Sequence record: PZ386977.1
From: a phage
Length of the DNA: 64,000 nt
Reading direction: 5' to 3' (one strand)
The first letter of the stretch is position 1, and each line of letters begins with the position of its first letter. A program made the translations under genes and the position numbers. A model generated the notes under the pieces. The model did not search any database. It was not told where the DNA came from and saw only the letters and a program-made list of their open reading frames with translations. Below, piece by piece: positions 7,951-62,623 of this stretch.

Positions 7951-8001
7951 GGCACTATTACTAAAGACCATATAATCTATCATCTTATGTGTAATAGTGC
8001 C
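7951..8001. repeat. perfect 11-bp inverted repeat with 29-nt AT-rich loop
   Basis: GGCACTATTAC ... GTAATAGTGCC; loop contains TATAAT; lies between the glycosyltransferase stop and the 66-aa ORF. Confidence 0.6.
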
Positions 8002-8017
8002 TCAGGCGATTCAGGAT

Positions 8018-9118
8018 TTACGCTGTGAAGATTTTATCCCACATCGCAACAACTGCATCTCGGTTATACTTCTTCCATACTGCTTCAGCACGTTTAACTC
8101 TAGCTTCGTATGTGTCAGTGAATTCTAATACAGCTTTTGTGTAAAGCGCAACTACTTCTTTCTTAGGAGTAGAGGAATCAATTTCTACACGCACAGTATC
8201 TGGGTCATATTCGAATGTCGCGTGCGGATAATCCTTAAAAACTAACTGAATCACAGGGACACCTTTAGAGATGGCTTCAATAGAACTATTCTCTACTGTA
8301 CCTGTGTCAGGACACGTATTGATAAGTGCTTTAGCTGTTTTAAGACGTTCCATGATTTCACTGTGTGGAGCATCAATAATAACAGGATATTTAGCTGGCG
8401 GTGCCCATTTACTAGGACAGTATCCTGCACCGTTTTCGCCTAGTGCTTTAATCGCTTCAAGAGCAACATCAGTACGACGCATCTTAGTGTCATAACGTTG
8501 AGCACTAATAATCAGATCAGTCGCTGGAAGAACTTCAGGTTTCTCATTCAAACAAATAACCGGATAATCTTCGGCTTCAAACAACGGATTTGCTCGCCAA
8601 TAATCATAATCAATTTTGTCAGTCAGACCTGAAGTCATATAACAATATTTGCGTTCAAATTCACGGAAGGCTTTAGTAGGAGCATAACTCTTGCCACCAT
8701 TCTTATGAATTTGAATAGTCTGGTCCCAAATTTGAACAATGCCACGAGATACCGGTTCAAATGGTGTTGCCATAAAATTCTTATGAACTTTAGAGAGACC
8801 TGCGTCTTTAATTGCCTGAACGGTTAGTTTGGTCGGTTCCATTGTAACAACGAAATCGTACTCATTGATGCCGGCTAGTTCAACAATCTTACGAGCCATA
8901 GTATAACTCATACCTAGACTGAATTTAGTCAGACGACCAACAGGATGATGATTAACCTTCCAGTCACCAAACGTGTCATTATCAAAGCCGATATAATCAA
9001 TATCAGCACCGATGGACACAAGATATTTCAACACATTTAAATGTACCGCTTCAAGACCACCTTGTACACGTTCTGGGTTAAATGGGACTGCGCGAGATGG
9101 GATAAACATAACTTTCAT
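8018..9118 (-). CDS. GT-B fold glycosyltransferase (GT4-like), candidate DNA hmC glycosyl/arabinosyl-transferase
   Basis: 366 aa; N-terminal MKVMFIPS...ERVQGGLEAVHLNVLKYL and C-terminal TGTVENSSIEAISKGVPVIQ resemble GT4 family motifs; occupies the rIIA-39 interval. Confidence 0.7.
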   Translation of the reverse strand: MKVMFIPSRAVPFNPERVQGGLEAVHLNVLKYLVSIGADIDYIGFDNDTFGDWKVNHHPVGRLTKFSLGMSYTMARKIVELAGINEYDFVVTMEPTKLTVQAIKDAGLSKVHKNFMATPFEPVSRGIVQIWDQTIQIHKNGGKSYAPTKAFREFERKYCYMTSGLTDKIDYDYWRANPLFEAEDYPVICLNEKPEVLPATDLIISAQRYDTKMRRTDVALEAIKALGENGAGYCPSKWAPPAKYPVIIDAPHSEIMERLKTAKALINTCPDTGTVENSSIEAISKGVPVIQLVFKDYPHATFEYDPDTVRVEIDSSTPKKEVVALYTKAVLEFTDTYEARVKRAEAVWKKYNRDAVVAMWDKIFTA

Positions 9119-12921: not shown

Positions 12922-13341
12922 TTATGCAAAAGATGCTGGACAATATTTTTTGATTTGGAACTCAGGAACTACCATGAACTGCCCGGCAAAAACAATGTTA
13001 TAAAGCTTGACACCATCTTCTACCCATTGGTCACTAATAAATCCGGCGATTTGCTTAGTTTTCCATGGCGTTCCATCAGTTGCAGCAGCAATAGTAAATT
13101 CATGGTCTTTTACAACTAAAACAGACCTGCACAGTTTCCATTTGAACGCTTTTTCTTCTGGTTCAATGAATTGGCTTTTAACGTAACCAATGTTGCCATC
13201 AGCATCACGAACTTTAACTTCATTGCGACCAAAAACCGGATCACTTACATAAAGAACTTCAACCAACTTACCAGCGACTTTAGAGCGAGAAGCATCTGAT
13301 ACGTGTACATAATCACCAATAGAGAGATTTGCAATATTCAT
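12922..13341 (-). CDS. hypothetical protein, tandem paralog 1 (139 aa)
   Basis: shares SxASRSKxAGxLVEV N-terminal and DQWVEDGxKLYNIVFxGxFxVV C-terminal motifs with the next ORF. Confidence 0.55.
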   Translation of the reverse strand: MNIANLSIGDYVHVSDASRSKVAGKLVEVLYVSDPVFGRNEVKVRDADGNIGYVKSQFIEPEEKAFKWKLCRSVLVVKDHEFTIAAATDGTPWKTKQIAGFISDQWVEDGVKLYNIVFAGQFMVVPEFQIKKYCPASFA

Positions 13342-13350
13342 AATAATTCC

Positions 13351-13806
13351 TTAAGCTTTACGAGGAGACACATAGCGAGTGATTTCAGATTCTTTAACAA
13401 CTCGGAAGTCACCTAAGAATACGATATTGTATAACTTTTCACCATCTTCAACCCATTGGTCACTAATGAAGCCGCACATAATATCAGTTTTGTTTGGATA
13501 ACCGTATTCATCGATGAAGTCAAATTCTTTATCAGTCTGGAATTCAACACCTTTGCAAAGGGCCCATTTGAACTGTACATTGGGTTCAGTAGAAGCAAAA
13601 TGAGCGCTCACATGAGTTTCCAAGAATTTAGGACTTACGTAAGCGTACTGAGTTTCAGTTTTTCCAGAACTAGGAATGATTCGAACTTTAACTTCTTTAA
13701 CACGACCAGTACCATTAGTACGAAGTCCGACAACTTCAACCAGACGACCTGCAGCTTTAGAACGAGATGCAGACGATACACGCTTAATTTCACCAATAGT
13801 AATCAT
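13351..13806 (-). CDS. hypothetical protein, tandem paralog 2 (about 151 aa, start trimmed)
   Basis: full-length similarity to paralog 1; first in-frame ATG lies in the promoter; MITIGEIKRV start has GAGAGAGA RBS. Confidence 0.55.
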   Translation of the reverse strand: MITIGEIKRVSSASRSKAAGRLVEVVGLRTNGTGRVKEVKVRIIPSSGKTETQYAYVSPKFLETHVSAHFASTEPNVQFKWALCKGVEFQTDKEFDFIDEYGYPNKTDIMCGFISDQWVEDGEKLYNIVFLGDFRVVKESEITRYVSPRKA

Positions 13807-13836
13807 AATTTCTCTCTCTTTGTTTAAGTTGAATTC

Positions 13837-13864
13837 ATTATACTCCATCCGTCCTTGGATGTAC
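13837..13864 (-). promoter_or_regulatory. early promoter (GTACAT-16-TATAAT) with spacer hairpin
   Basis: variant of the TATACTCCAACCATCCTTGGTTGTAAAC cassette. Confidence 0.5.
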
Positions 13865-13868
13865 AACA

Positions 13869-14363
13869 TTAATTAAGGATATTAACCACAGCACTACGTG
13901 GAACTACACTAAAATCACCTGCATGAACAACGTTCAGAAGTTCAACACCGTCTTCAATCCATTGGTCAGTTACCCATCCATTTACTGGACCGGCGAATGG
14001 GCGTCGAATTGAAACATATTTACACAACAAATCAGTAGGCTCAATAGGCTTAATCAGAGTACCGTACATACAAGCGATGTCCATATCAAAGTGGAGACCA
14101 TCTTTAACAGGTGCTTCTTCAATCAACAGTTCAAAGTCGGTGCTTGGAAGGGCGGTAGTAGAAATTGTACCGTATGAATTTTTAATTTCTAAGAATAACC
14201 AAGGGCCTTCAACTTGTTTGATGAAGTTAACAATAGTGAAACTATTACCTTGAGTGGCACCTAAAATTTCACAAAACTTTTCATAAGCTCGCACTGAAGC
14301 ACCATACCAGTTGATTTGTTTTTCATCTTTCAGGATGTAAGTAGCCGTAGTATTGATATTCAT
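13869..14363 (-). CDS. hypothetical protein, paralog 3 (about 164 aa, start trimmed)
   Basis: C-terminal WVTDQWIEDGVELLNVVHAGDFSVV module shared with paralogs 1 and 2. Confidence 0.5.
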   Translation of the reverse strand: MNINTTATYILKDEKQINWYGASVRAYEKFCEILGATQGNSFTIVNFIKQVEGPWLFLEIKNSYGTISTTALPSTDFELLIEEAPVKDGLHFDMDIACMYGTLIKPIEPTDLLCKYVSIRRPFAGPVNGWVTDQWIEDGVELLNVVHAGDFSVVPRSAVVNILN

Positions 14364-14393
14364 AATGTTTTCCTGTTTGGTTAAAATAGAAAG

Positions 14394-14423
14394 ATTATAC
14401 TCCAACCATCCTTGGTTGTAAAC
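14394..14423 (-). promoter_or_regulatory. early promoter GTTTAC-18-TATAAT with CAACCA/TGGTTG spacer hairpin
   Basis: minus strand GTTTACAACCAAGGATGGTTGGAGTATAAT; same cassette at 57117-57146 and 58137-58166. Confidence 0.6.
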
Positions 14424-55167: not shown

Positions 55168-55427
55168 TTAAAATATTCTCGCAGTTGGTCAAATCCACCA
55201 ATATGACTTCCATCAGGAGCAAATACCTGAGGCATAGTCAATCCAACTTGTGATTCACGTCCTAGTTTATTCAGAAGCTCGTCAATTTTTTCTTCATCAA
55301 ATACACCTTTCTCTGGCATCACGTTAATGAATTCGAACGGCTGTTTCTTAACAGTCAGCAATCGTTTCGCATTATCACAATAAATGCATTTATGAATAGT
55401 AGAGTCATACCCGTACACTTTAAACAT
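55164..55427 (-). CDS. nrdC: glutaredoxin/thioredoxin NrdC
   Basis: start trimmed to MFKVYGYDSTIHKCIYCDNAKRLL; CxxC motif; 87 aa as in T4 NrdC. Confidence 0.8.
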   Translation of the reverse strand: MFKVYGYDSTIHKCIYCDNAKRLLTVKKQPFEFINVMPEKGVFDEEKIDELLNKLGRESQVGLTMPQVFAPDGSHIGGFDQLREYFK

Positions 55428-55833
55428 TATTTTTCCTTTCATCAATTAAATATGCAATGCCAAATACAATACATGTAATAAAACCTGTGATACAGATAGA
55501 AACCAACAACACTGTACCAAAGAACCAAATCAAGTTATCTTTAGTAGTTTGTTTGATATCCATCTCACGAATTTCTATAGCTATCGTATCACCTTTATTC
55601 AGAAGCGTATAAAACGATGGCGATACACGCCTGTCAAAAACTCGTCCTTGCTCATCTTTATAGACTGCAATAAATTCTAAATTAGAATATTTTCCTGTAG
55701 ATTGGCCTGAGATTAATTCCACTACCTCCACAGGAATTACTTTAGTTTCCATGTAAGTATTCTGGCTGTTCCAAATGAATGGAATAACGGCAAAAACTAA
55801 AGCTGCGATAAAACAACGAAGGCTATATCTCAT
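55420..55833 (-). CDS. membrane protein (137 aa)
   Basis: N- and C-terminal predicted TM helices flanking a soluble domain. Confidence 0.5.
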   Translation of the reverse strand: MRYSLRCFIAALVFAVIPFIWNSQNTYMETKVIPVEVVELISGQSTGKYSNLEFIAVYKDEQGRVFDRRVSPSFYTLLNKGDTIAIEIREMDIKQTTKDNLIWFFGTVLLVSICITGFITCIVFGIAYLIDERKNNV

Positions 55834-56138
55834 TATAATGTTCTCTCAAATTTGTGGAAGCATTTACGACATTTCAATTTCAAGTTATCAGTGGTCCAGT
55901 TAACCAGTTGGACTTGGATAGTTCCACATTCCGGGCATGGATGTTTTGCTGCCGATTTGGCAGCATTTTCACGTCGTTCAACCATTTTCATTATTTCGTT
56001 CCATGCCGGAGGAACGAACTCTTCTTCACCGTGGATTTTATCTCGCTGAACAAATTCAATCTTTGAACTATCGTCAATAAACTTAACCAAGCCATGATTA
56101 GTGCTCATATCAATATCCTCTAAAAGACGTAGTTTCAT
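55833..56138 (-). CDS. zinc-ribbon protein (101 aa)
   Basis: C-terminal CPECG...CRKC. Confidence 0.5.
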   Translation of the reverse strand: MKLRLLEDIDMSTNHGLVKFIDDSSKIEFVQRDKIHGEEEFVPPAWNEIMKMVERRENAAKSAAKHPCPECGTIQVQLVNWTTDNLKLKCRKCFHKFERTL

Positions 56139-57088
56139 TATAACACCTCAATGGCATTTCGTAAACCGTCCGCTTTCGCATTCAGAGCTTTTAACGATTT
56201 AGTTTGTTCTTTAATCTGGGCTTCGACTTCTTTCAGACGAGATTTGAGGTACTCACGTTCTTCGCTCAAGTTGTCAACTTTTTCTACTTTAGGTTCTTTA
56301 ATAGTCTTAAGTTTATACTCGTTAGGGTTCTTCAACTTAATTCGGGTACGAGAACTATATAACATTGAACCGTTATCTTCGGATTCGTCGAACGTTTCAA
56401 CAACATCCATAGTCTCTAACAATGTAATAAGTTTATAAGACAACGAACGAATAGTTTTGTTGTGCTTATTAATTTCTTCGGCTTTCATGGTACCGAGATT
56501 ACGTGAGTAGTAATAAGGAACCTGGATATCAATTGATAATGATGCGTTACCATTACCAGTTGGTTTGAATACTGCAGTAACCCAATCTTTAACATGAACT
56601 TTATTTGTACGGCCATCACCGCCAGTGAATAATTTACGAGAATGTTTAAAAAGCATATTCACTTGTTTATTGAATTCACAAGCAAATTTATCAGCAAATT
56701 TAGTTTCAGGAATGGTAGATAACCAATCAGCCAAATGAGTCTTTTTAACATCATTAACAATAGTGAATTCAACCAAATCGGTTTTAGATGTCACAGATTT
56801 AATAAAGCTCGGCTTCATAAAGTTTTTAATGTTATCGCGAGCTACAGTAGAAGATAATAAACGAGAACGTTTGAACCATTGAAGCAGGGTCCCTAATGAA
56901 TGAGAATACGCATTCTGAGTATCTTTACAGATATGATTTTCTTGGCCTGTGTATGTACCAAAATCGCGAAGAATACCACTTACTACATCTCGGTGCGGAA
57001 CATCAAATCCTAGTGCACCAGAAGCGCGCTGAGCATGAACGTTAGCGATAAGACCGGCAAAGTATTCAATGTAATGTGAACGTGTCAT
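56138..57088 (-). CDS. hypothetical protein with C-terminal coiled coil (316 aa), tandem gene A
   Basis: ATG ORF with own early promoter; C-terminal heptad-like segment. Confidence 0.55.
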   Translation of the reverse strand: MTRSHYIEYFAGLIANVHAQRASGALGFDVPHRDVVSGILRDFGTYTGQENHICKDTQNAYSHSLGTLLQWFKRSRLLSSTVARDNIKNFMKPSFIKSVTSKTDLVEFTIVNDVKKTHLADWLSTIPETKFADKFACEFNKQVNMLFKHSRKLFTGGDGRTNKVHVKDWVTAVFKPTGNGNASLSIDIQVPYYYSRNLGTMKAEEINKHNKTIRSLSYKLITLLETMDVVETFDESEDNGSMLYSSRTRIKLKNPNEYKLKTIKEPKVEKVDNLSEEREYLKSRLKEVEAQIKEQTKSLKALNAKADGLRNAIEVL

Positions 57089-57116
57089 AATATTTTCCTC
57101 TCGTTAAGATAGATTC

Positions 57117-57146
57117 ATTATACTCCGACCATCCTTGGTTGTAAAC
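57117..57146 (-). promoter_or_regulatory. early promoter GTTTAC-18-TATAAT (CCAACCATCCTTGGTTG cassette)
   Basis: same cassette as 14394-14423. Confidence 0.6.
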
Positions 57147-57150
57147 TATT

Positions 57151-58110
57151 TTATGATTTTAATGCATTCATTGCGTTAAAAAGTTTAGAATACTGCAACT
57201 GGAGATTCGTTACAACACTTTGAGCATCACGAAGCTTAGCTTGTGCTTTGTCAAGTTCAACAGACAGTTGGTCCATAGTGACCTTGATTTGATTGTAATG
57301 GTAATCTTCGACCGGAAGAAGGTCATTAGAAACATTTAGTTTTACTGCAGACAGTTTGCACACATTTGGCGAACCTTTAAACATTGATTTACCCGAAGTA
57401 GAATAAGCACTTAGGACTTCGGCCTGTTCAATTGGGGTCCCAGTAAGCGATGCTTCAAACAATGCATTTTCCTTTTTAAGATTTTGATAGTATTCAGAGT
57501 CTTTGTGCCACCATGGCGCAGGAACCTTTTTACCAATAGATACACGAGCCTGGATAGCGATATGGCCCTTATTCTTGATAGGGTCGACAATATTAAGCTC
57601 ACGAGAATAAATTGCTTTAATCTGGTGGATATTATCACCTAAAACTTCCAACGCTTGGTGGAATACACGAGCAACGTTATCATTCTTAGGTTTATACGTA
57701 AGAGTGAACTCATTCTCACTGATAACCATGATTTCCAACTTATCGTAAGTATATTTCAAATGTTTCATGTTAATTGCTTGAGGACGAATACGAGAAGCAA
57801 TGGCCATCAGATTGTTAAGGTTATTCCGGAACTGCTTAGCGAAATATTGTCCTTCACCGCCAATACAAAAATTACGAAGTTTCTGTTTGGCTAGTAAACG
57901 GCTGAACTCACCATTTTTAATGAACTCTTTAACGGGTGTGTTAGTAACGCATTCAAATTGAGTAAACGTACGAGAATTAATCCCATAATACGAACAGATT
58001 TCCTCAATCTCTTCAGGAGTCTTTACAGGCATACGGATAGGATTAGGTTCTGGGGTATATGCGTTCGAGGTAAATTCTTTGATAAGTTCTCTACGTGTAA
58101 TAAAAGCCAT
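57151..58110 (-). CDS. hypothetical protein with C-terminal coiled coil (319 aa), tandem gene B
   Basis: ATG ORF with own early promoter. Confidence 0.55.
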   Translation of the reverse strand: MAFITRRELIKEFTSNAYTPEPNPIRMPVKTPEEIEEICSYYGINSRTFTQFECVTNTPVKEFIKNGEFSRLLAKQKLRNFCIGGEGQYFAKQFRNNLNNLMAIASRIRPQAINMKHLKYTYDKLEIMVISENEFTLTYKPKNDNVARVFHQALEVLGDNIHQIKAIYSRELNIVDPIKNKGHIAIQARVSIGKKVPAPWWHKDSEYYQNLKKENALFEASLTGTPIEQAEVLSAYSTSGKSMFKGSPNVCKLSAVKLNVSNDLLPVEDYHYNQIKVTMDQLSVELDKAQAKLRDAQSVVTNLQLQYSKLFNAMNALKS

Positions 58111-58136
58111 TTTATATTCCTCATGTTGAAAAATTT

Positions 58137-58166
58137 ATTATACTCCAACCATCCTTGGTTGTACAT
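58137..58166 (-). promoter_or_regulatory. early promoter (ATGTAC-18-TATAAT), same cassette family
   Basis: TTATACTCCAACCATCCTTGGTTGTACAT. Confidence 0.55.
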
Positions 58167-59161
58167 CATTCCTTAAGAAGTTTTACTACCTGAATAAGAT
58201 TAGCTCGTTCTGTTTTATTTTTACCGTTTAAGCCTGCTAATCGTGAGATTTCATCGTCAGTTTGTTGAATAGTTACATTAAGTTCATTAATCAAAGCTTC
58301 AAAGTATTTGATTTGCTCAGCATGTTTTGATTCAAATTTCTGAACCGGAATAACGTCTTGGTTTAGTTCGTCAATAAGGTCTTTAAGAGCATCTTCTTGG
58401 TTGATATCATATTCAACTTCTTTTATTTCTTCAACGAGCTCGTCTTTATATCTAACGTCTTTTAGTCCTGGTGCTGGTCCTGAAATCTCTTCTTTAAGAG
58501 TACAAACATACCCAATACGGTATCCAGTGCCGTCTCGCTTGATATCAACTTCGTCGATAAATCCACAATGTTTAAGTCCAGAGCCGATTATGTCAAAATA
58601 TCCTTGACGTCGTCCTTCAAACGTTACACGAACTACTAAGATAGTTTTGCCACCAACCTTTTGAAGCTCACATTTATAAAAGTTTGTTGAACCTGAATAA
58701 CGTGGATGAGTTTTAAAGTTCATCTGACGATCTAGGCCCATTTGTAAACGCGCTGTTACAGCCATAAAACGTGTTTGGTTCTCGTTAAGATGAGCAACGA
58801 TCCATTTCAAAGGCATTTTACACTGTTCACGACCGAACAAATCAGTACGTCCTAGATTACGCAGGATGTTGTTAGAGTTAATCATCGACAGAACGTTAAG
58901 TTTATTCAGCGCGCTGAAGATTCCATCAGCCATTGATTTTCCATAACCTTTACACGCTTTAATAAGTGCTCGTGGCAGATTAGTATAGATTTCAGACGGC
59001 ATATGAAAATCAAATTTACTAGTCAGTAATTGATGAACTTGGATAGCAATTTGCTCATAATTAAGTGCTCTGCGATCGTTATGGTCTTTAAACCACACTT
59101 TAATCTGTGAAGCACATAAACCGTTAATTTCATGTTTTACCGCATCAGATGTAATGCTCAT
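58166..59161 (-). CDS. hypothetical protein with C-terminal coiled coil (331 aa), tandem gene C
   Basis: ATG ORF; degenerate copy of the promoter cassette upstream (about 59195-59225). Confidence 0.55.
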   Translation of the reverse strand: MSITSDAVKHEINGLCASQIKVWFKDHNDRRALNYEQIAIQVHQLLTSKFDFHMPSEIYTNLPRALIKACKGYGKSMADGIFSALNKLNVLSMINSNNILRNLGRTDLFGREQCKMPLKWIVAHLNENQTRFMAVTARLQMGLDRQMNFKTHPRYSGSTNFYKCELQKVGGKTILVVRVTFEGRRQGYFDIIGSGLKHCGFIDEVDIKRDGTGYRIGYVCTLKEEISGPAPGLKDVRYKDELVEEIKEVEYDINQEDALKDLIDELNQDVIPVQKFESKHAEQIKYFEALINELNVTIQQTDDEISRLAGLNGKNKTERANLIQVVKLLKE

Positions 59162-59223
59162 AACTATTTCCTCAGATTGAATTGGAACTCAAAACCATTA
59201 TAACCCGTCCTTGGGTAAAGCGT

Positions 59224-59751
59224 TTATGCGTGAACCGTCTTTAAACGTTCTTCAAATTTCCGAAGAGTACTAATACGTTCTGCTTTCTGTTTTGTATAGT
59301 TTGCAATACGTTCTGAAGTGAGAGCGTATCGTTCGTTTACTGTTTCTTTCATGAAGTCAGGGATTTCACGAGAAGCTTTAATTTCATCAAACTTATCGAG
59401 TACTGCCTGGTCTTCAGCGATTAAATTTTCGTACATCTCGATATCTTTCTTGATAAACTCGATATCTTCCTGGGTTACTTTGGATAAACGAGATGCTTTA
59501 TCCTTTTTGTACTGCTCGTTAGTTTCACGAGACCAGAATAATGTACGTTTTTTGTTAGTGTTTTTGTAGACTTCCACAATTCCAACTGAATCGATGATAA
59601 CAATCCAATTCCAGTGAGATTTGAAAATCTGACCTCCGTCCACGGTAATCTCGTTACCATAAGCAACATCGTTAAAGAACTTGCTTTGTGCTTCAGATTT
59701 AAATTTACCGTCGTTATAATTTACCAGGTTGAAAATATCTTTAGCGTTCAT
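59224..59751 (-). CDS. hypothetical protein (175 aa)
   Basis: ATG ORF with GGAGG RBS inside promoter/stem-loop cassette. Confidence 0.5.
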   Translation of the reverse strand: MNAKDIFNLVNYNDGKFKSEAQSKFFNDVAYGNEITVDGGQIFKSHWNWIVIIDSVGIVEVYKNTNKKRTLFWSRETNEQYKKDKASRLSKVTQEDIEFIKKDIEMYENLIAEDQAVLDKFDEIKASREIPDFMKETVNERYALTSERIANYTKQKAERISTLRKFEERLKTVHA

Positions 59752-59778
59752 GTTTTACCTCCAGTAGTTGATAGGTCT

Positions 59779-59807
59779 ATAATAACATAACCATAGACCT
59801 TGTAAAC
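59779..59807 (-). promoter_or_regulatory. early promoter (GTTTAC-17-TATTAT) with AGGTCTAT/ATAGACCT inverted repeat
   Basis: PeSL-like cassette. Confidence 0.55.
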
Positions 59808-59809
59808 AA

Positions 59810-60097
59810 CTAAAAGAAACTTTTTTCGGTATTTTTTCCACTGAACCAAACAGACTTCGGGGTTTTTTGTAATTTTTCAGATTTAAGTTTCTCTTCCTGT
59901 TCTTTCTTATATACACTCTTGTCGTACTGGAGCATCTCTATGGCATTCTTTTGCAAATGATCTAAGGTAATTAAGGCTTTAGTTTTTCCTTTCAAGGAAG
60001 AGTCCTGGCGAACTTCCTCGCTATATTGCATCGTAGAACTAACCATACGATGTGCATACAGTTCGAATGCGGCTTTGATTTTTTGCATAAAATCCAT
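59810..60097 (-). CDS. hypothetical protein (95 aa)
   Basis: ATG ORF. Confidence 0.4.
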   Translation of the reverse strand: MDFMQKIKAAFELYAHRMVSSTMQYSEEVRQDSSLKGKTKALITLDHLQKNAIEMLQYDKSVYKKEQEEKLKSEKLQKTPKSVWFSGKNTEKSFF

Positions 60098-60235: not shown

Positions 60236-61216
60236 TTATTTCAGTAAAGTTACTTCAGAGATTTCCTCCCAACCATCTTTATCAGTTGAAATAAAATCTG
60301 CTACATAAAGAGCCGTACGTAATGATACATTGCGAAGACGAGATACGTTAGCCTTCATCCAGGACAATGCTTTGTACGTTTCAGCATCAGTCAAGCCACG
60401 TTTCTGCATCATGTCAGTAGATAATATTACATCTTCAACTCGAACCATAATCTCTTCATTAGAGTGTACTCCAAGATCGAGATATACTGAACGAGATACT
60501 AAAGCTTGAAGGTGAGGAGCAAGTTTCGAACCACGTTCTAACTCTTTATCGATATCAACGTTTGTAATGAAAACGATAGTACCTTCAAACTCAAATTCTT
60601 TATCGATACCCTTATCATCAAGATAAGATGATGCAGTGCTCCAGCAAACTTTGCGTTTATCACCGGTATCTAATGCGGCTTTAAGAAGGTTCAGGATGTC
60701 CATATCCGAGAATACGTCAACGTCGTCGATTAAGAGAACGCTGTCTGCATCACGGTTGAGCCAAAGTTGTTCGTAAAGGCCAATACCAGAGATTTTACCA
60801 TTAATGCTTTTGTATTTGATGAAACCATTATCATTAGCACTATTAAGTGCTTTATCCAGAGAATACGTCTTACCAATACCGGCTGCACCTGAAATAATGA
60901 GTGAACGAATTTTGCCATCGATAATGCCATTCGTCATCATGTTCATTACTTTAAAGCGTTTGTTGATACGAGTTTTCATATCTTCAGTGCTTTCAACAAC
61001 TGCAACTGGTGTTGTCTCAACTCCTTCCATTACGATGTCTGATTTGAAGACCCATACTCCACGTTCAGAACCATCAATCATAACGAAAATTTTACCATCA
61101 CCTAAGTGGGAACATTCAGGATTAAGCTTTGCTGGGAACCAGGTCTTTGTGGCAACATAAGATCCAGAGATTTCGTTATTACGATAGATACCTTTTTTGA
61201 TTTGAACGTTGAACAT
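60236..61216 (-). CDS. P-loop ATPase (AAA-like) with N-terminal extra domain
   Basis: Walker A GAAGIGKT and Walker B VLLIDDVD; start trimmed to ATG after the promoter (MFNVQ) with GGAGAA RBS. Confidence 0.6.
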   Translation of the reverse strand: MFNVQIKKGIYRNNEISGSYVATKTWFPAKLNPECSHLGDGKIFVMIDGSERGVWVFKSDIVMEGVETTPVAVVESTEDMKTRINKRFKVMNMMTNGIIDGKIRSLIISGAAGIGKTYSLDKALNSANDNGFIKYKSINGKISGIGLYEQLWLNRDADSVLLIDDVDVFSDMDILNLLKAALDTGDKRKVCWSTASSYLDDKGIDKEFEFEGTIVFITNVDIDKELERGSKLAPHLQALVSRSVYLDLGVHSNEEIMVRVEDVILSTDMMQKRGLTDAETYKALSWMKANVSRLRNVSLRTALYVADFISTDKDGWEEISEVTLLK

Positions 61217-61254
61217 TTTATTCTCCAATTTACTCATTTCGTTTCGATAGGTCT

Positions 61255-61283
61255 ATAATAACATATCCTAAAAGCATGTACAC
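61255..61283 (-). promoter_or_regulatory. early promoter (GTGTAC-17-TATTAT)
   Basis: upstream of the ATPase gene. Confidence 0.45.
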
Positions 61284-61314
61284 TACTTTTTTTAAAATAT
61301 TTTAACCCCCTAAA

Positions 61315-61633: not shown

Positions 61634-62623
61634 TTATTTATAGTAAGAATTATGATTTTCGAGATAGACTTGCTCAAGGAAATCATCCCAGAAACTCATA
61701 TCTACTTTTTGTTGCATACCGTTCTTAGCGGCTTGTTCTGATGCTTGTTCAACTTGGTCAACGATATCTTCTAGGAATTCTTGTACAGTTTTAAACGTAT
61801 GTTTACCAAGCTTAACATCGAGAATAAATGGAGCATCCTGAAGCGGGTAAACCAGGTCGCCGGTTTTGTAAATTTCCAATAATTGAAGTCCACCACGACA
61901 TGCATGACTCAATGCTTTCCAGTCAATACCTTCGTTAGCTTCCGCCTTACGAGCACGTTCACCATAGTTCTCTTCCAGTTTAACCAGGATGGCATTGAAC
62001 TCTTTATTGGTTAACGTGTCTTGGAATTTACGGTCTAACAGATTATAGAATGTTTGCTTACCTGTTTTCTCGTTTTCGGTTTCAACCCATGAAGCAAATT
62101 CACCTACAGGCAGAACATTCTTCATATGTGATAAACGAATTACTGCACCATTATCAAAGTATTGTCCCCATTCATTAGAACGTTTAAGGGCTTGACGAAG
62201 AACAGCCAGTCGAGAACCCTTGACACCGTATTTAGAAGCTTGCTTACGGACATACCCTAAATAAGATTTCATGTTAGTGGTATAGAAACGAGACCTGTTA
62301 TCTTGAATATACTTCCATACATCAGGCAAATCAGATTTAACTACTAGACTTGGTGGAGTGTGAAGCATATCTAATGCAACAGTTTCACCATCCGCAGCTA
62401 GTTTAAAGAAATATTTGAGACTATACAACTCATGGTCCACGTCGTCTTTTGTGTTCTTAGAAGATGTGTTATTCGTGTTCTTGCTCATATGTTCTTTAAC
62501 GTTACCTGTCAAGATATCACGAGCATGAGGGACATAAATTTCTTTAAAATCAACGTCAGATTCAGGAGTAGATGTTCCATAAAGGTGGCTACCAAAGTAG
62601 CTTTTCATAATTGTTTTCATCAT
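61634..62623 (-). CDS. Pol-beta superfamily nucleotidyltransferase (329 aa)
   Basis: GS-x10-DxD motif (YFGSHLYGTSTPESDVDF) plus downstream acidic DVDHE; C-terminal helical region. Confidence 0.6.
   Translation of the reverse strand: MMKTIMKSYFGSHLYGTSTPESDVDFKEIYVPHARDILTGNVKEHMSKNTNNTSSKNTKDDVDHELYSLKYFFKLAADGETVALDMLHTPPSLVVKSDLPDVWKYIQDNRSRFYTTNMKSYLGYVRKQASKYGVKGSRLAVLRQALKRSNEWGQYFDNGAVIRLSHMKNVLPVGEFASWVETENEKTGKQTFYNLLDRKFQDTLTNKEFNAILVKLEENYGERARKAEANEGIDWKALSHACRGGLQLLEIYKTGDLVYPLQDAPFILDVKLGKHTFKTVQEFLEDIVDQVEQASEQAAKNGMQQKVDMSFWDDFLEQVYLENHNSYYK
61635..61642 (-). promoter_or_regulatory. late promoter TATAAATA
   Basis: exact octamer on minus strand upstream of ORF 61336..61602. 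Confidence 0.45.

Follow-up and report, generated by a model that had tools for sequence, protein, structure and literature searches.

The question raised by this locus is whether three neighbouring phage genes of similar size are members of one family and, if so, how they came to lie in tandem and what their products do. The genes lie on the minus strand of a 64,000-nucleotide (nt) stretch of phage DNA (sequence record PZ386977.1), the whole of which was analysed and is referred to here as the window. They are named A (56138–57088, 316 amino acids, aa), B (57151–58110, 319 aa) and C (58166–59161, 331 aa). An original prediction, made from the letters alone, had described them as three consecutive genes of about 320 aa, and minus-strand open reading frames (ORFs) were found exactly at these borders, with a Shine-Dalgarno GAGG 6–9 nt ahead of each ATG. 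On balance, A, B and C are best read as ancient, fast-diverging paralogues within a superfamily, specific to T4-like phages, that includes NrdC.3, NrdC.4, NrdC.5 and NrdC.6, and as early-expressed inhibitors of host immunity, a function for which homology and genomic context argue.

The 4-kb region holding the genes is 97–98% identical to Mosigvirus genomes (mar005P1, OLB35 and ATK47), and matches to all or part of it occur in 640 T-even phage records. The window phage is a Mosigvirus, that is, an RB69/ATK47-like T-even phage. Judged from the annotation of ATK47 and T4, the genes belong to the block of non-essential early genes from nrdC to nrdC.11, and the gene order is that of T4. A is the orthologue of T4 NrdC.3 (56% identity over the full length, expectation value (E) 7e-118), and C is the orthologue of NrdC.6 (30% identity over 271 aa, E 4e-18). 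B shares 25% identity with T4 NrdC.5 across 308 aa (E 6e-11) and is a member of the Pfam family to which that protein belongs, DUF7235 (PF23882), scoring 408.7 bits over residues 15–318 and model positions 1–307. Membership was defined by the curated gathering cut-off of 30 bits and a full-length match to the model; T4 NrdC.5 (420.6 bits) and orf82 of Dhakavirus IME08 (397 bits) are likewise full-length members. Neither A nor C matched DUF7235 at E up to 0.1. A falls in phrog_1435 and C in phrog_2257, and precomputed assignments place PF26897 on 33 of 33 relatives of A (56–94% identity) and PF26899 on four of four relatives of C (68–99% identity). In PHROGs, the three proteins belong to three separate families of unknown function. 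The families are narrow: a search of 5.8 billion proteins gave 34 clusters for A, 19 for B and four for C, and an exhaustive search of 1.84 billion representative proteins gave only six clusters for the C family, with no bridging sequences. B was found in only 136 phage records, nearly all of them Mosigvirus-like.

Pairwise BLASTP among A, B and C gave no matches, and family-against-family comparison with hhalign, using shallow alignments, linked NrdC.3 to NrdC.4 alone. The nrdC neighbourhoods of Dhakavirus, Gelderlandvirus, Jiaodavirus, Karamvirus and one Acinetobacter phage were added, together with 11 loci from IMG/VR. Most of the added genera carry a single protein of about 330 aa beside nrdC, with the same motifs and a coiled-coil tail, and relatives occupy the same genomic slot adjoining nrdC in at least seven genera. 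The NrdC.3 and NrdC.4 families were linked by hhalign with a probability of 97% (E 7e-11). A pooled NrdC.3/4-type profile, which included the relatives of about 330 aa, matched the NrdC.5 family with a probability of 95–97% (E 2e-8 to 6e-10) over up to 242 columns. The same profile matched the NrdC.6 family, represented by C, with a probability of 72–75% (E 3e-5) over 152 columns outside the coiled coil. Searches with hidden Markov models (HMMs) gave corresponding links. Within the local ORF set, the C-family HMM found a Karamvirus protein of 332 aa (E 5e-6), co-linear from the ARL motif to the tail, and the HMM of the NrdC.3/4 group found Dhakavirus NrdC.6 (E 3e-5) through the LS…L.NF motif, the next match being noise at 0.07.

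The alignments that reached significance run co-linearly for 110–240 columns and fall outside the coiled coil. The motifs held in common occur in a fixed order, namely TR..I..F at the N-terminus (not in C), F.K…LS……L.NF, F..F………A(S/A)RL, L..M(D/N).VE, P-V-(E/Q) and a tail ending in L..A…L(K), and they are visible as co-linear motifs in an alignment of seven sequences. As aligned by hhalign and hmmsearch, one shared motif is encoded on the minus strand at 56819–56875 in A (FKRSRLLSSTVARDNIKNF), with counterparts at 57868–57924 in B (FIKNGEFSRLLAKQKLRNF) and 58853–58912 in C (ALNKLNVLSMINSNNILRNL). A second lies at 56609–56686 in A (FACEFNKQVNMLFKHSRKLFTGGDGR), with counterparts on the same strand at 57763–57843 in B (…ASRI…) and 58712–58801 in C (…TARLQ…). 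The least conserved stretch falls at about residues 220–260 in all three families. For the link of C, the best of 60 block-shuffled profiles reached E 0.013 and the reversed profile 0.35. Shuffled and reversed controls gave at most 25 bits, against 43–75 bits observed. When the columns were defined differently, the link of C weakened to E 6e-4 to 9e-4, whether or not AlphaFold secondary structure was included.

These sequence comparisons give good support to the view that A and B are homologous, and C very probably belongs to the same superfamily. The proposal of a diversified family was borne out in this way, through profile–profile and HMM links that run along co-linear motifs of the N-terminal and central regions, and the models of A and C described below share an order of elements. 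The N-terminal domains had been called divergent, which is correct in that identity is under 20%, although they appear homologous rather than unrelated. A first match of the A-family HMM to T4 NrdC.5 (52 bits) proved to be an artefact of a fusion protein (P0033, described below), which was removed. A joint MAFFT alignment of A, B and C misaligned the N-termini and was less sensitive, and it was not used for the large search. NrdC.8 was considered as a truncated member and rejected, its hhalign probability being below 1% against each family. In phages of Aeromonas, Cronobacter and Vibrio, where NrdC.10 served as the synteny anchor, the neighbourhood is different and family members were not found.

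The coiled coil that had been predicted at all three C-termini was recovered in A and B. A coiled coil was defined by hydrophobic heptad periodicity over at least five heptads without proline, and the heptad score used was a crude, home-made measure over the last 35 residues or so, uncalibrated as a coiled-coil predictor. The tail of A (residues 276–316; 56141–56263, minus strand) scored 0.85 and that of B (residues 277–319; 57154–57282, minus strand) 0.81; none of 100 shuffles reached the score of A (residues 279–313) or of B (residues 285–319). The tail of C (residues 280–331; 58169–58324, minus strand) is helical only, with a score of 0.66 (p about 0.29 from shuffles) and a weak heptad pattern that is broken by GLNGKN. 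AlphaFold drew the tail of A as a single long helix at residues 275–315, with a predicted local distance difference test score (pLDDT) of 70–80, and that of C as four broken helices at 273–330.

The AlphaFold models were built on shallow alignments, and reached a pLDDT of 56 and a predicted template modelling score of 0.36 for A, and 50 and 0.37 for C. Three unrelated folds, the outcome that would have spoken against a family, did not emerge from the models of A and C. No superposition was possible, and in these low-confidence models the elements of A and C follow a like order: five N-terminal helices, a linker, two helices at about 118–147, a beta hairpin at 162–189, a helix, two more strands and the C-terminal helices. 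Foldseek searches of BFVD returned the own family first for A and C, followed by uncharacterised proteins of 300–370 aa from T4-like phages (Serratia PS2, Pectobacterium PM2, Enterobacter IME523, Acinetobacter 133 and Acj61; E 4e-5 to 7e-3). The proteins may be pictured as starting with a helical domain of about 90 aa, followed by a central alpha/beta domain, by a linker at about residues 220–260 that is hypervariable, and by a C-terminal helical or coiled-coil tail, which probably gives a dimer or a higher oligomer.

The function of the three genes had been given as unknown, a statement that is out of date for the branch of B. T4 nrdC.5, of the same Pfam family, counteracts Dsr1, a SIR2-type NADase defence protein of E. 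coli ECOR17 (Srikant et al., 2022; PMC9391042). A T4 clone without nrdC.5 failed to plate on ECOR17 and on MG1655 carrying the dsr1 gene of ECOR17, and expression of nrdC.5 restored plating of the T4 mutant on dsr1 cells. In the same study, nrdC.5 is called an early gene, and the T4 genes of the nrdC block, nrdC.5 among them, could be deleted without harm to growth on laboratory E. coli. B resembles T4 NrdC.5 in its full-length DUF7235 domain, its equivalent slot in the nrdC cluster, its length class, its early promoter and its C-terminal coiled coil, which ends in L.NA.NAL. Because it belongs to the same Pfam family, B is a candidate inhibitor of the Dsr1 type. It differs in sharing only 25% identity with the T4 protein, so that its target may be other than Dsr1; A and C lie outside DUF7235 and are joined to it by profile–profile comparison only.

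The surroundings point in the same direction. T6 gp49.2 is a reported inhibitor of OLD (PMC13096335), and T4 nrdC.1 and bas37_0203 are reported to inhibit Septu and Druantia III, respectively (bioRxiv 10.1101/2025.11.20.689424). The preprint does not call the last of these nrdC.8; its GenBank record allowed it to be recognised in the present analysis as KarlGJung's NrdC.8 orthologue. Its counterpart in the window, with 83% identity, is the 175-aa NrdC.8 orthologue at 59224–59751 (minus strand), immediately upstream of C. Since genes around them are reported defence inhibitors, A, B and C appear to stand in an anti-defence island. They share with gp49.2, NrdC.1 and NrdC.8 the neighbourhood, early expression, dispensability, restriction to T-even phages and the lack of known domains. 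They differ in having no detectable sequence relationship to those proteins, which are also much smaller (80–175 aa).

Divergence has been much faster in the array than in its neighbours. A, B and C share 56%, 25% and 30% identity with their respective T4 counterparts, against 83% and 78% for NrdC.8 and NrdC.10; even among Karamvirus phages the single-copy relative drops to 60% identity, and the family numbers one to four copies among T4-like genera. In the mechanism proposed, the host sigma-70 RNA polymerase would transcribe the genes as soon as infection begins, starting at T4-type early promoters; A and B would use their own, and C would more likely be read through from the promoter upstream of nrdC.8. 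Each paralogue would bind and neutralise a different host anti-phage immunity protein, A and C being aimed at systems other than Dsr1. An arms race of this kind would lead to the low identity to T4 (25–56%, against about 80% for the neighbours) and to the variation in copy number from one to four.

Each of the genes had been credited with its own copy of the same early promoter cassette, which holds for A and B. A T4-type early sigma-70 promoter was defined by a (G)TTTAC-type -35 hexamer, a spacer of 16–18 nt and TATAAT. Such promoters are present at 57108–57150 upstream of A (minus strand; GTTTACA, 17 nt with CCAAGGATGG, TATAAT; promoter scan 11/12) and at 58128–58170 upstream of B (minus strand; TGTACA, 17 nt, TATAAT; promoter scan 10/12), and the two cassettes form a 43-nt direct repeat with 84% identity. 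The copy of C (59197–59219, minus strand) is shortened and reads TTTACC, 11 nt (CAAGGACGGGT) and TATAAT. It retains only TTTAC-CCAAGGACGG-TATAAT, its spacer of 11 nt falls outside the definition, and the promoter scan made no call there. It is an old truncated relative of the cassette rather than a full copy, and is doubtful as a promoter. The short form is kept just downstream of nrdC.8 in T4 and Dhakavirus.

A 29-nt core of the cassette, TTTACAACCAAGGATGGTCGGAGTATAAT, occurs without mismatch in the A copy and with two mismatches in the B copy. Allowing up to two mismatches, the window holds three matches, against 0.00 expected from 100 shuffles, and the third full match, at 14394–14422, lies 42 kb away, upstream of an unrelated gene family. 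The shorter core CCAAGGAYGG occurs five times in the window (0.15 expected), always in an intergenic promoter position, and T4, Dhakavirus and other Mosigviruses keep it at the same junctions. The cassette behaves as a general, selectively maintained early-promoter module that is not specific to A, B and C, because it also precedes unrelated early genes at 13.8–14.4 kb and is kept at the T4 and Dhakavirus junctions. The spacer of the B cassette can form a 6-bp hairpin, CAACCA-AGGA-TGGTTG (fold z -2.2), and a stable hairpin is absent from the A cassette (z +0.5) and the C cassette (z +1.3). On the minus strand between 56 and 59 kb, no terminator-like site was predicted. Since none separates the genes, C may be read from the hairpin-bearing promoter at 59779–59806, upstream of nrdC.8.

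Comparable elements of T4-type phages have been described as promoter-early stem-loop (PeSL) cassettes (Arbiol et al., 2010, PMC2839356; Comeau et al., 2014, PMC4122927), in which the promoter is accompanied by a stable stem-loop with a terminator or attenuator role. The early-promoter consensus of phage PST and the T4 type is TTTACW-N17-TAYWAT (PMC4122927); the A cassette fits it exactly, and that of B deviates at one position of the -35 hexamer. Both cassettes resemble PeSLs in being a repeated intergenic -35/-10 module in a hyperplastic region, flanking variable, non-essential ORFs. They differ in that the hairpin has only 5–6 bp and is weak or absent in the A copy, and in the lack of a predicted terminator-like site. 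A second class of cassette lies upstream of nrdC.8 and nrdC.10 (59770–59811 and 61246–61287, with 81% identity over 42 nt). Its strong 11-bp hairpin overlaps the -10 element (RNA fold -21 kcal/mol, z -3.9), and this class is closer to the classical PeSL than are the A and B cassettes. The unrelated family at 14 kb is itself a tandem array of three paralogues, downstream of dexA on the minus strand at 12922–14423 (12922–13341, 13351–13806/13869 and 13869–14363/14405). Its members have a common C-terminal motif, GFISDQWVEDG.KLYNIVF.G.F.VV, and two of the three stand behind an A/B-type cassette (14394–14422, and a variant at about 13835–13866).

Two other accounts of the array concern its descent. 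A, B and C might be unrelated proteins, alike only in size, early promoter and a generic coiled-coil tail, with profile matches that reflect composition or chance. The silence of BLASTP and the separate families kept by PHROGs and Pfam would suit this account, as would the direct hhalign comparison of the B and C families, which was not significant (E 0.04 to 0.1), and the structure models of A and C, too poor for a comparison of folds. It is nevertheless improbable, given that co-linear alignments outside the coiled coil outscore the shuffled and reversed controls, that HMM matches are reciprocal, that the order of motifs, the order of secondary structure and the position of the hypervariable segment are alike, and that relatives in at least seven genera hold the same slot beside nrdC. 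The other account accepts the kinship and makes the array the product of a recent duplication by recombination between promoter cassettes; the original prediction had proposed duplication through the repeated cassette. Near-identical cassettes do flank A and B with a period of 1020 nt, and PeSL cassettes are documented shuffling agents in T4-type phages (PMC2839356, PMC4122927). The proteins, however, are less than 20% identical and give no BLAST match, against 84% for the cassettes, and the two could be of the same age only if the cassette had been conserved or homogenised for a function of its own. T4 and Dhakavirus already possess the array, its members there being orthologous and its cassettes occupying the same junctions, and the same cassette precedes the unrelated genes at 13.8–14.4 kb. 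No recombination at the cassettes was observed in this analysis; the only recombinant seen was joined inside coding sequence. This is P0033, a natural fusion, at an FNKVN microhomology, of NrdC.5 residues 146–272 (94% identical to T4) with an NrdC.3-type stretch running from residue 136 to the end; it is carried on three contigs of up to 167 kb. For the fusion to arise, some T-even phage must have lost the end of nrdC.5, the whole of nrdC.4 and the beginning of nrdC.3 by deletion. A recent cassette-mediated duplication, itself very unlikely, is contradicted by these data, and an ancient one is compatible with them. Recombination could be favoured by the cassette, which does not, however, appear to be a leftover of duplication, because the paralogues are far more diverged than the cassettes, the cassette stands before unrelated genes and the junctions are conserved.

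Several results weigh against reading the paralogues as immunity inhibitors of one superfamily. The models of A and C (pLDDT 56 and 50) are too low in confidence for superposition, template modelling (TM) scores to other phage proteins in BFVD were low (0.2–0.36), and neither sequence profile nor fold gave a match in the PDB, hence no structural support for a binding-inhibitor mechanism. C is tied to the family with moderate strength (probability about 70%), and more weakly under the other column setting (E 6e-4 to 9e-4), and B is only 25% identical to T4 NrdC.5. The experiment that sets NrdC.5 against Dsr1 was one of complementation (PMC9391042). The three proteins are basic, with an isoelectric point (pI) of 8.1–9.4, which suits nucleic-acid binding equally well. 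The paralogues could instead be related factors of host takeover or nucleic-acid binding, for example modulators of transcription (of host or phage), replication or the nucleoid, with an indirect effect of NrdC.5 on Dsr1. Their net charge of +2 to +11, their oligomerising tails, as found in many DNA- and RNA-binding proteins, and early expression beside many host-takeover genes agree with such a role. It is nonetheless rather unlikely: searches of Pfam, PHROGs and the PDB showed no nucleic-acid-binding domain, and nrdC.5, although dispensable on laboratory E. coli, makes a difference on a host with dsr1 (PMC9391042). Arms-race genes typically show extreme divergence and differ in copy number between genera, and surrounding genes are reported defence inhibitors. 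A role as DNA mimics was rejected, A, B and C being basic.

A broader proposal is plausible, though somewhat doubtful. NrdC.3, NrdC.4, NrdC.5, NrdC.6 and the single-copy relatives would constitute a modular anti-immunity platform made of a conserved scaffold, a hypervariable segment and an oligomerising tail. Each paralogue or allele would be tuned to a different defence protein, NrdC.5 to Dsr1, A and C would inhibit other systems, and the conserved cassettes would serve as recombination points for the swapping of alleles.

Earlier records already cover the genes and the Pfam and PHROG families to which they belong, as well as the promoter cassettes and the action of NrdC.5 against Dsr1. The link among NrdC.3, NrdC.4, NrdC.5, NrdC.6 and the single-copy relatives was not found in the literature searched, and PHROGs and Pfam keep these families apart. 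It is a modest organising insight rather than a new kind of system. Should the proteins form one family of immunity inhibitors, a single scaffold would explain several 'dark matter' early genes of T-even phages, A/NrdC.3 and C/NrdC.6 would be ready candidates for trials against cloned defence systems, and the diverged alleles would provide a natural series for mapping the determinants of target specificity. A, B and C may also affect the host range of Mosigvirus phages in phage therapy.

The window has a GC content of about 37% throughout, and its minus strand carries nearly all genes. In many GenBank records, including those of ATK47, F31 and SHSML-52-1, the label thioredoxin is attached to all nrdC.x genes, among them A, B, C and the one for the AAA ATPase NrdC.10. 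This label, which a thioredoxin-fold domain or a CxxC motif would support, was rejected for A, B and C, which gave no thioredoxin or glutaredoxin match in Pfam; it has spread from the name of the nrdC gene, as none of these nrdC.x proteins has a thioredoxin domain. Farther upstream on the minus strand lie NrdC.10 (60236–61237), a P-loop/AAA-type ATPase with weak STAND-NTPase-like matches that is present in 1312 phage records, jumbo phages included, and NrdC.11 (61634–62623), a RlaP-type nucleotidyltransferase of an RNA-repair pathway family.

With respect to NrdC.3, NrdC.4 and NrdC.6 of T4, which are uncharacterised early proteins, the window has the same genome order and conserved junction cassettes. 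It differs in that it has no orthologue of NrdC.4 and in that an NrdC.7-like gene has moved next to nrdC. This gene (55420–55833, minus strand) encodes a membrane protein 42% identical to T4 NrdC.7, which lies between nrdC.6 and nrdC.8 in T4; the change of position indicates a local rearrangement of genes relative to T4. C also keeps a tail that T4 NrdC.6 has lost. In the T4 reference (NC_000866), nrdC.6 is frameshifted after …KQIEEL, and the coding sequence of its ancestral tail, ISIQQYDDEIFRLSGLSSKAKSEREKLIKIVDLLKS, survives in a different frame of the 'intergenic' DNA before nrdC.5 (T4 7990–8230, minus strand). In phage KarlGJung (Bas37), NrdC.6 is intact, with a length of 295 aa.

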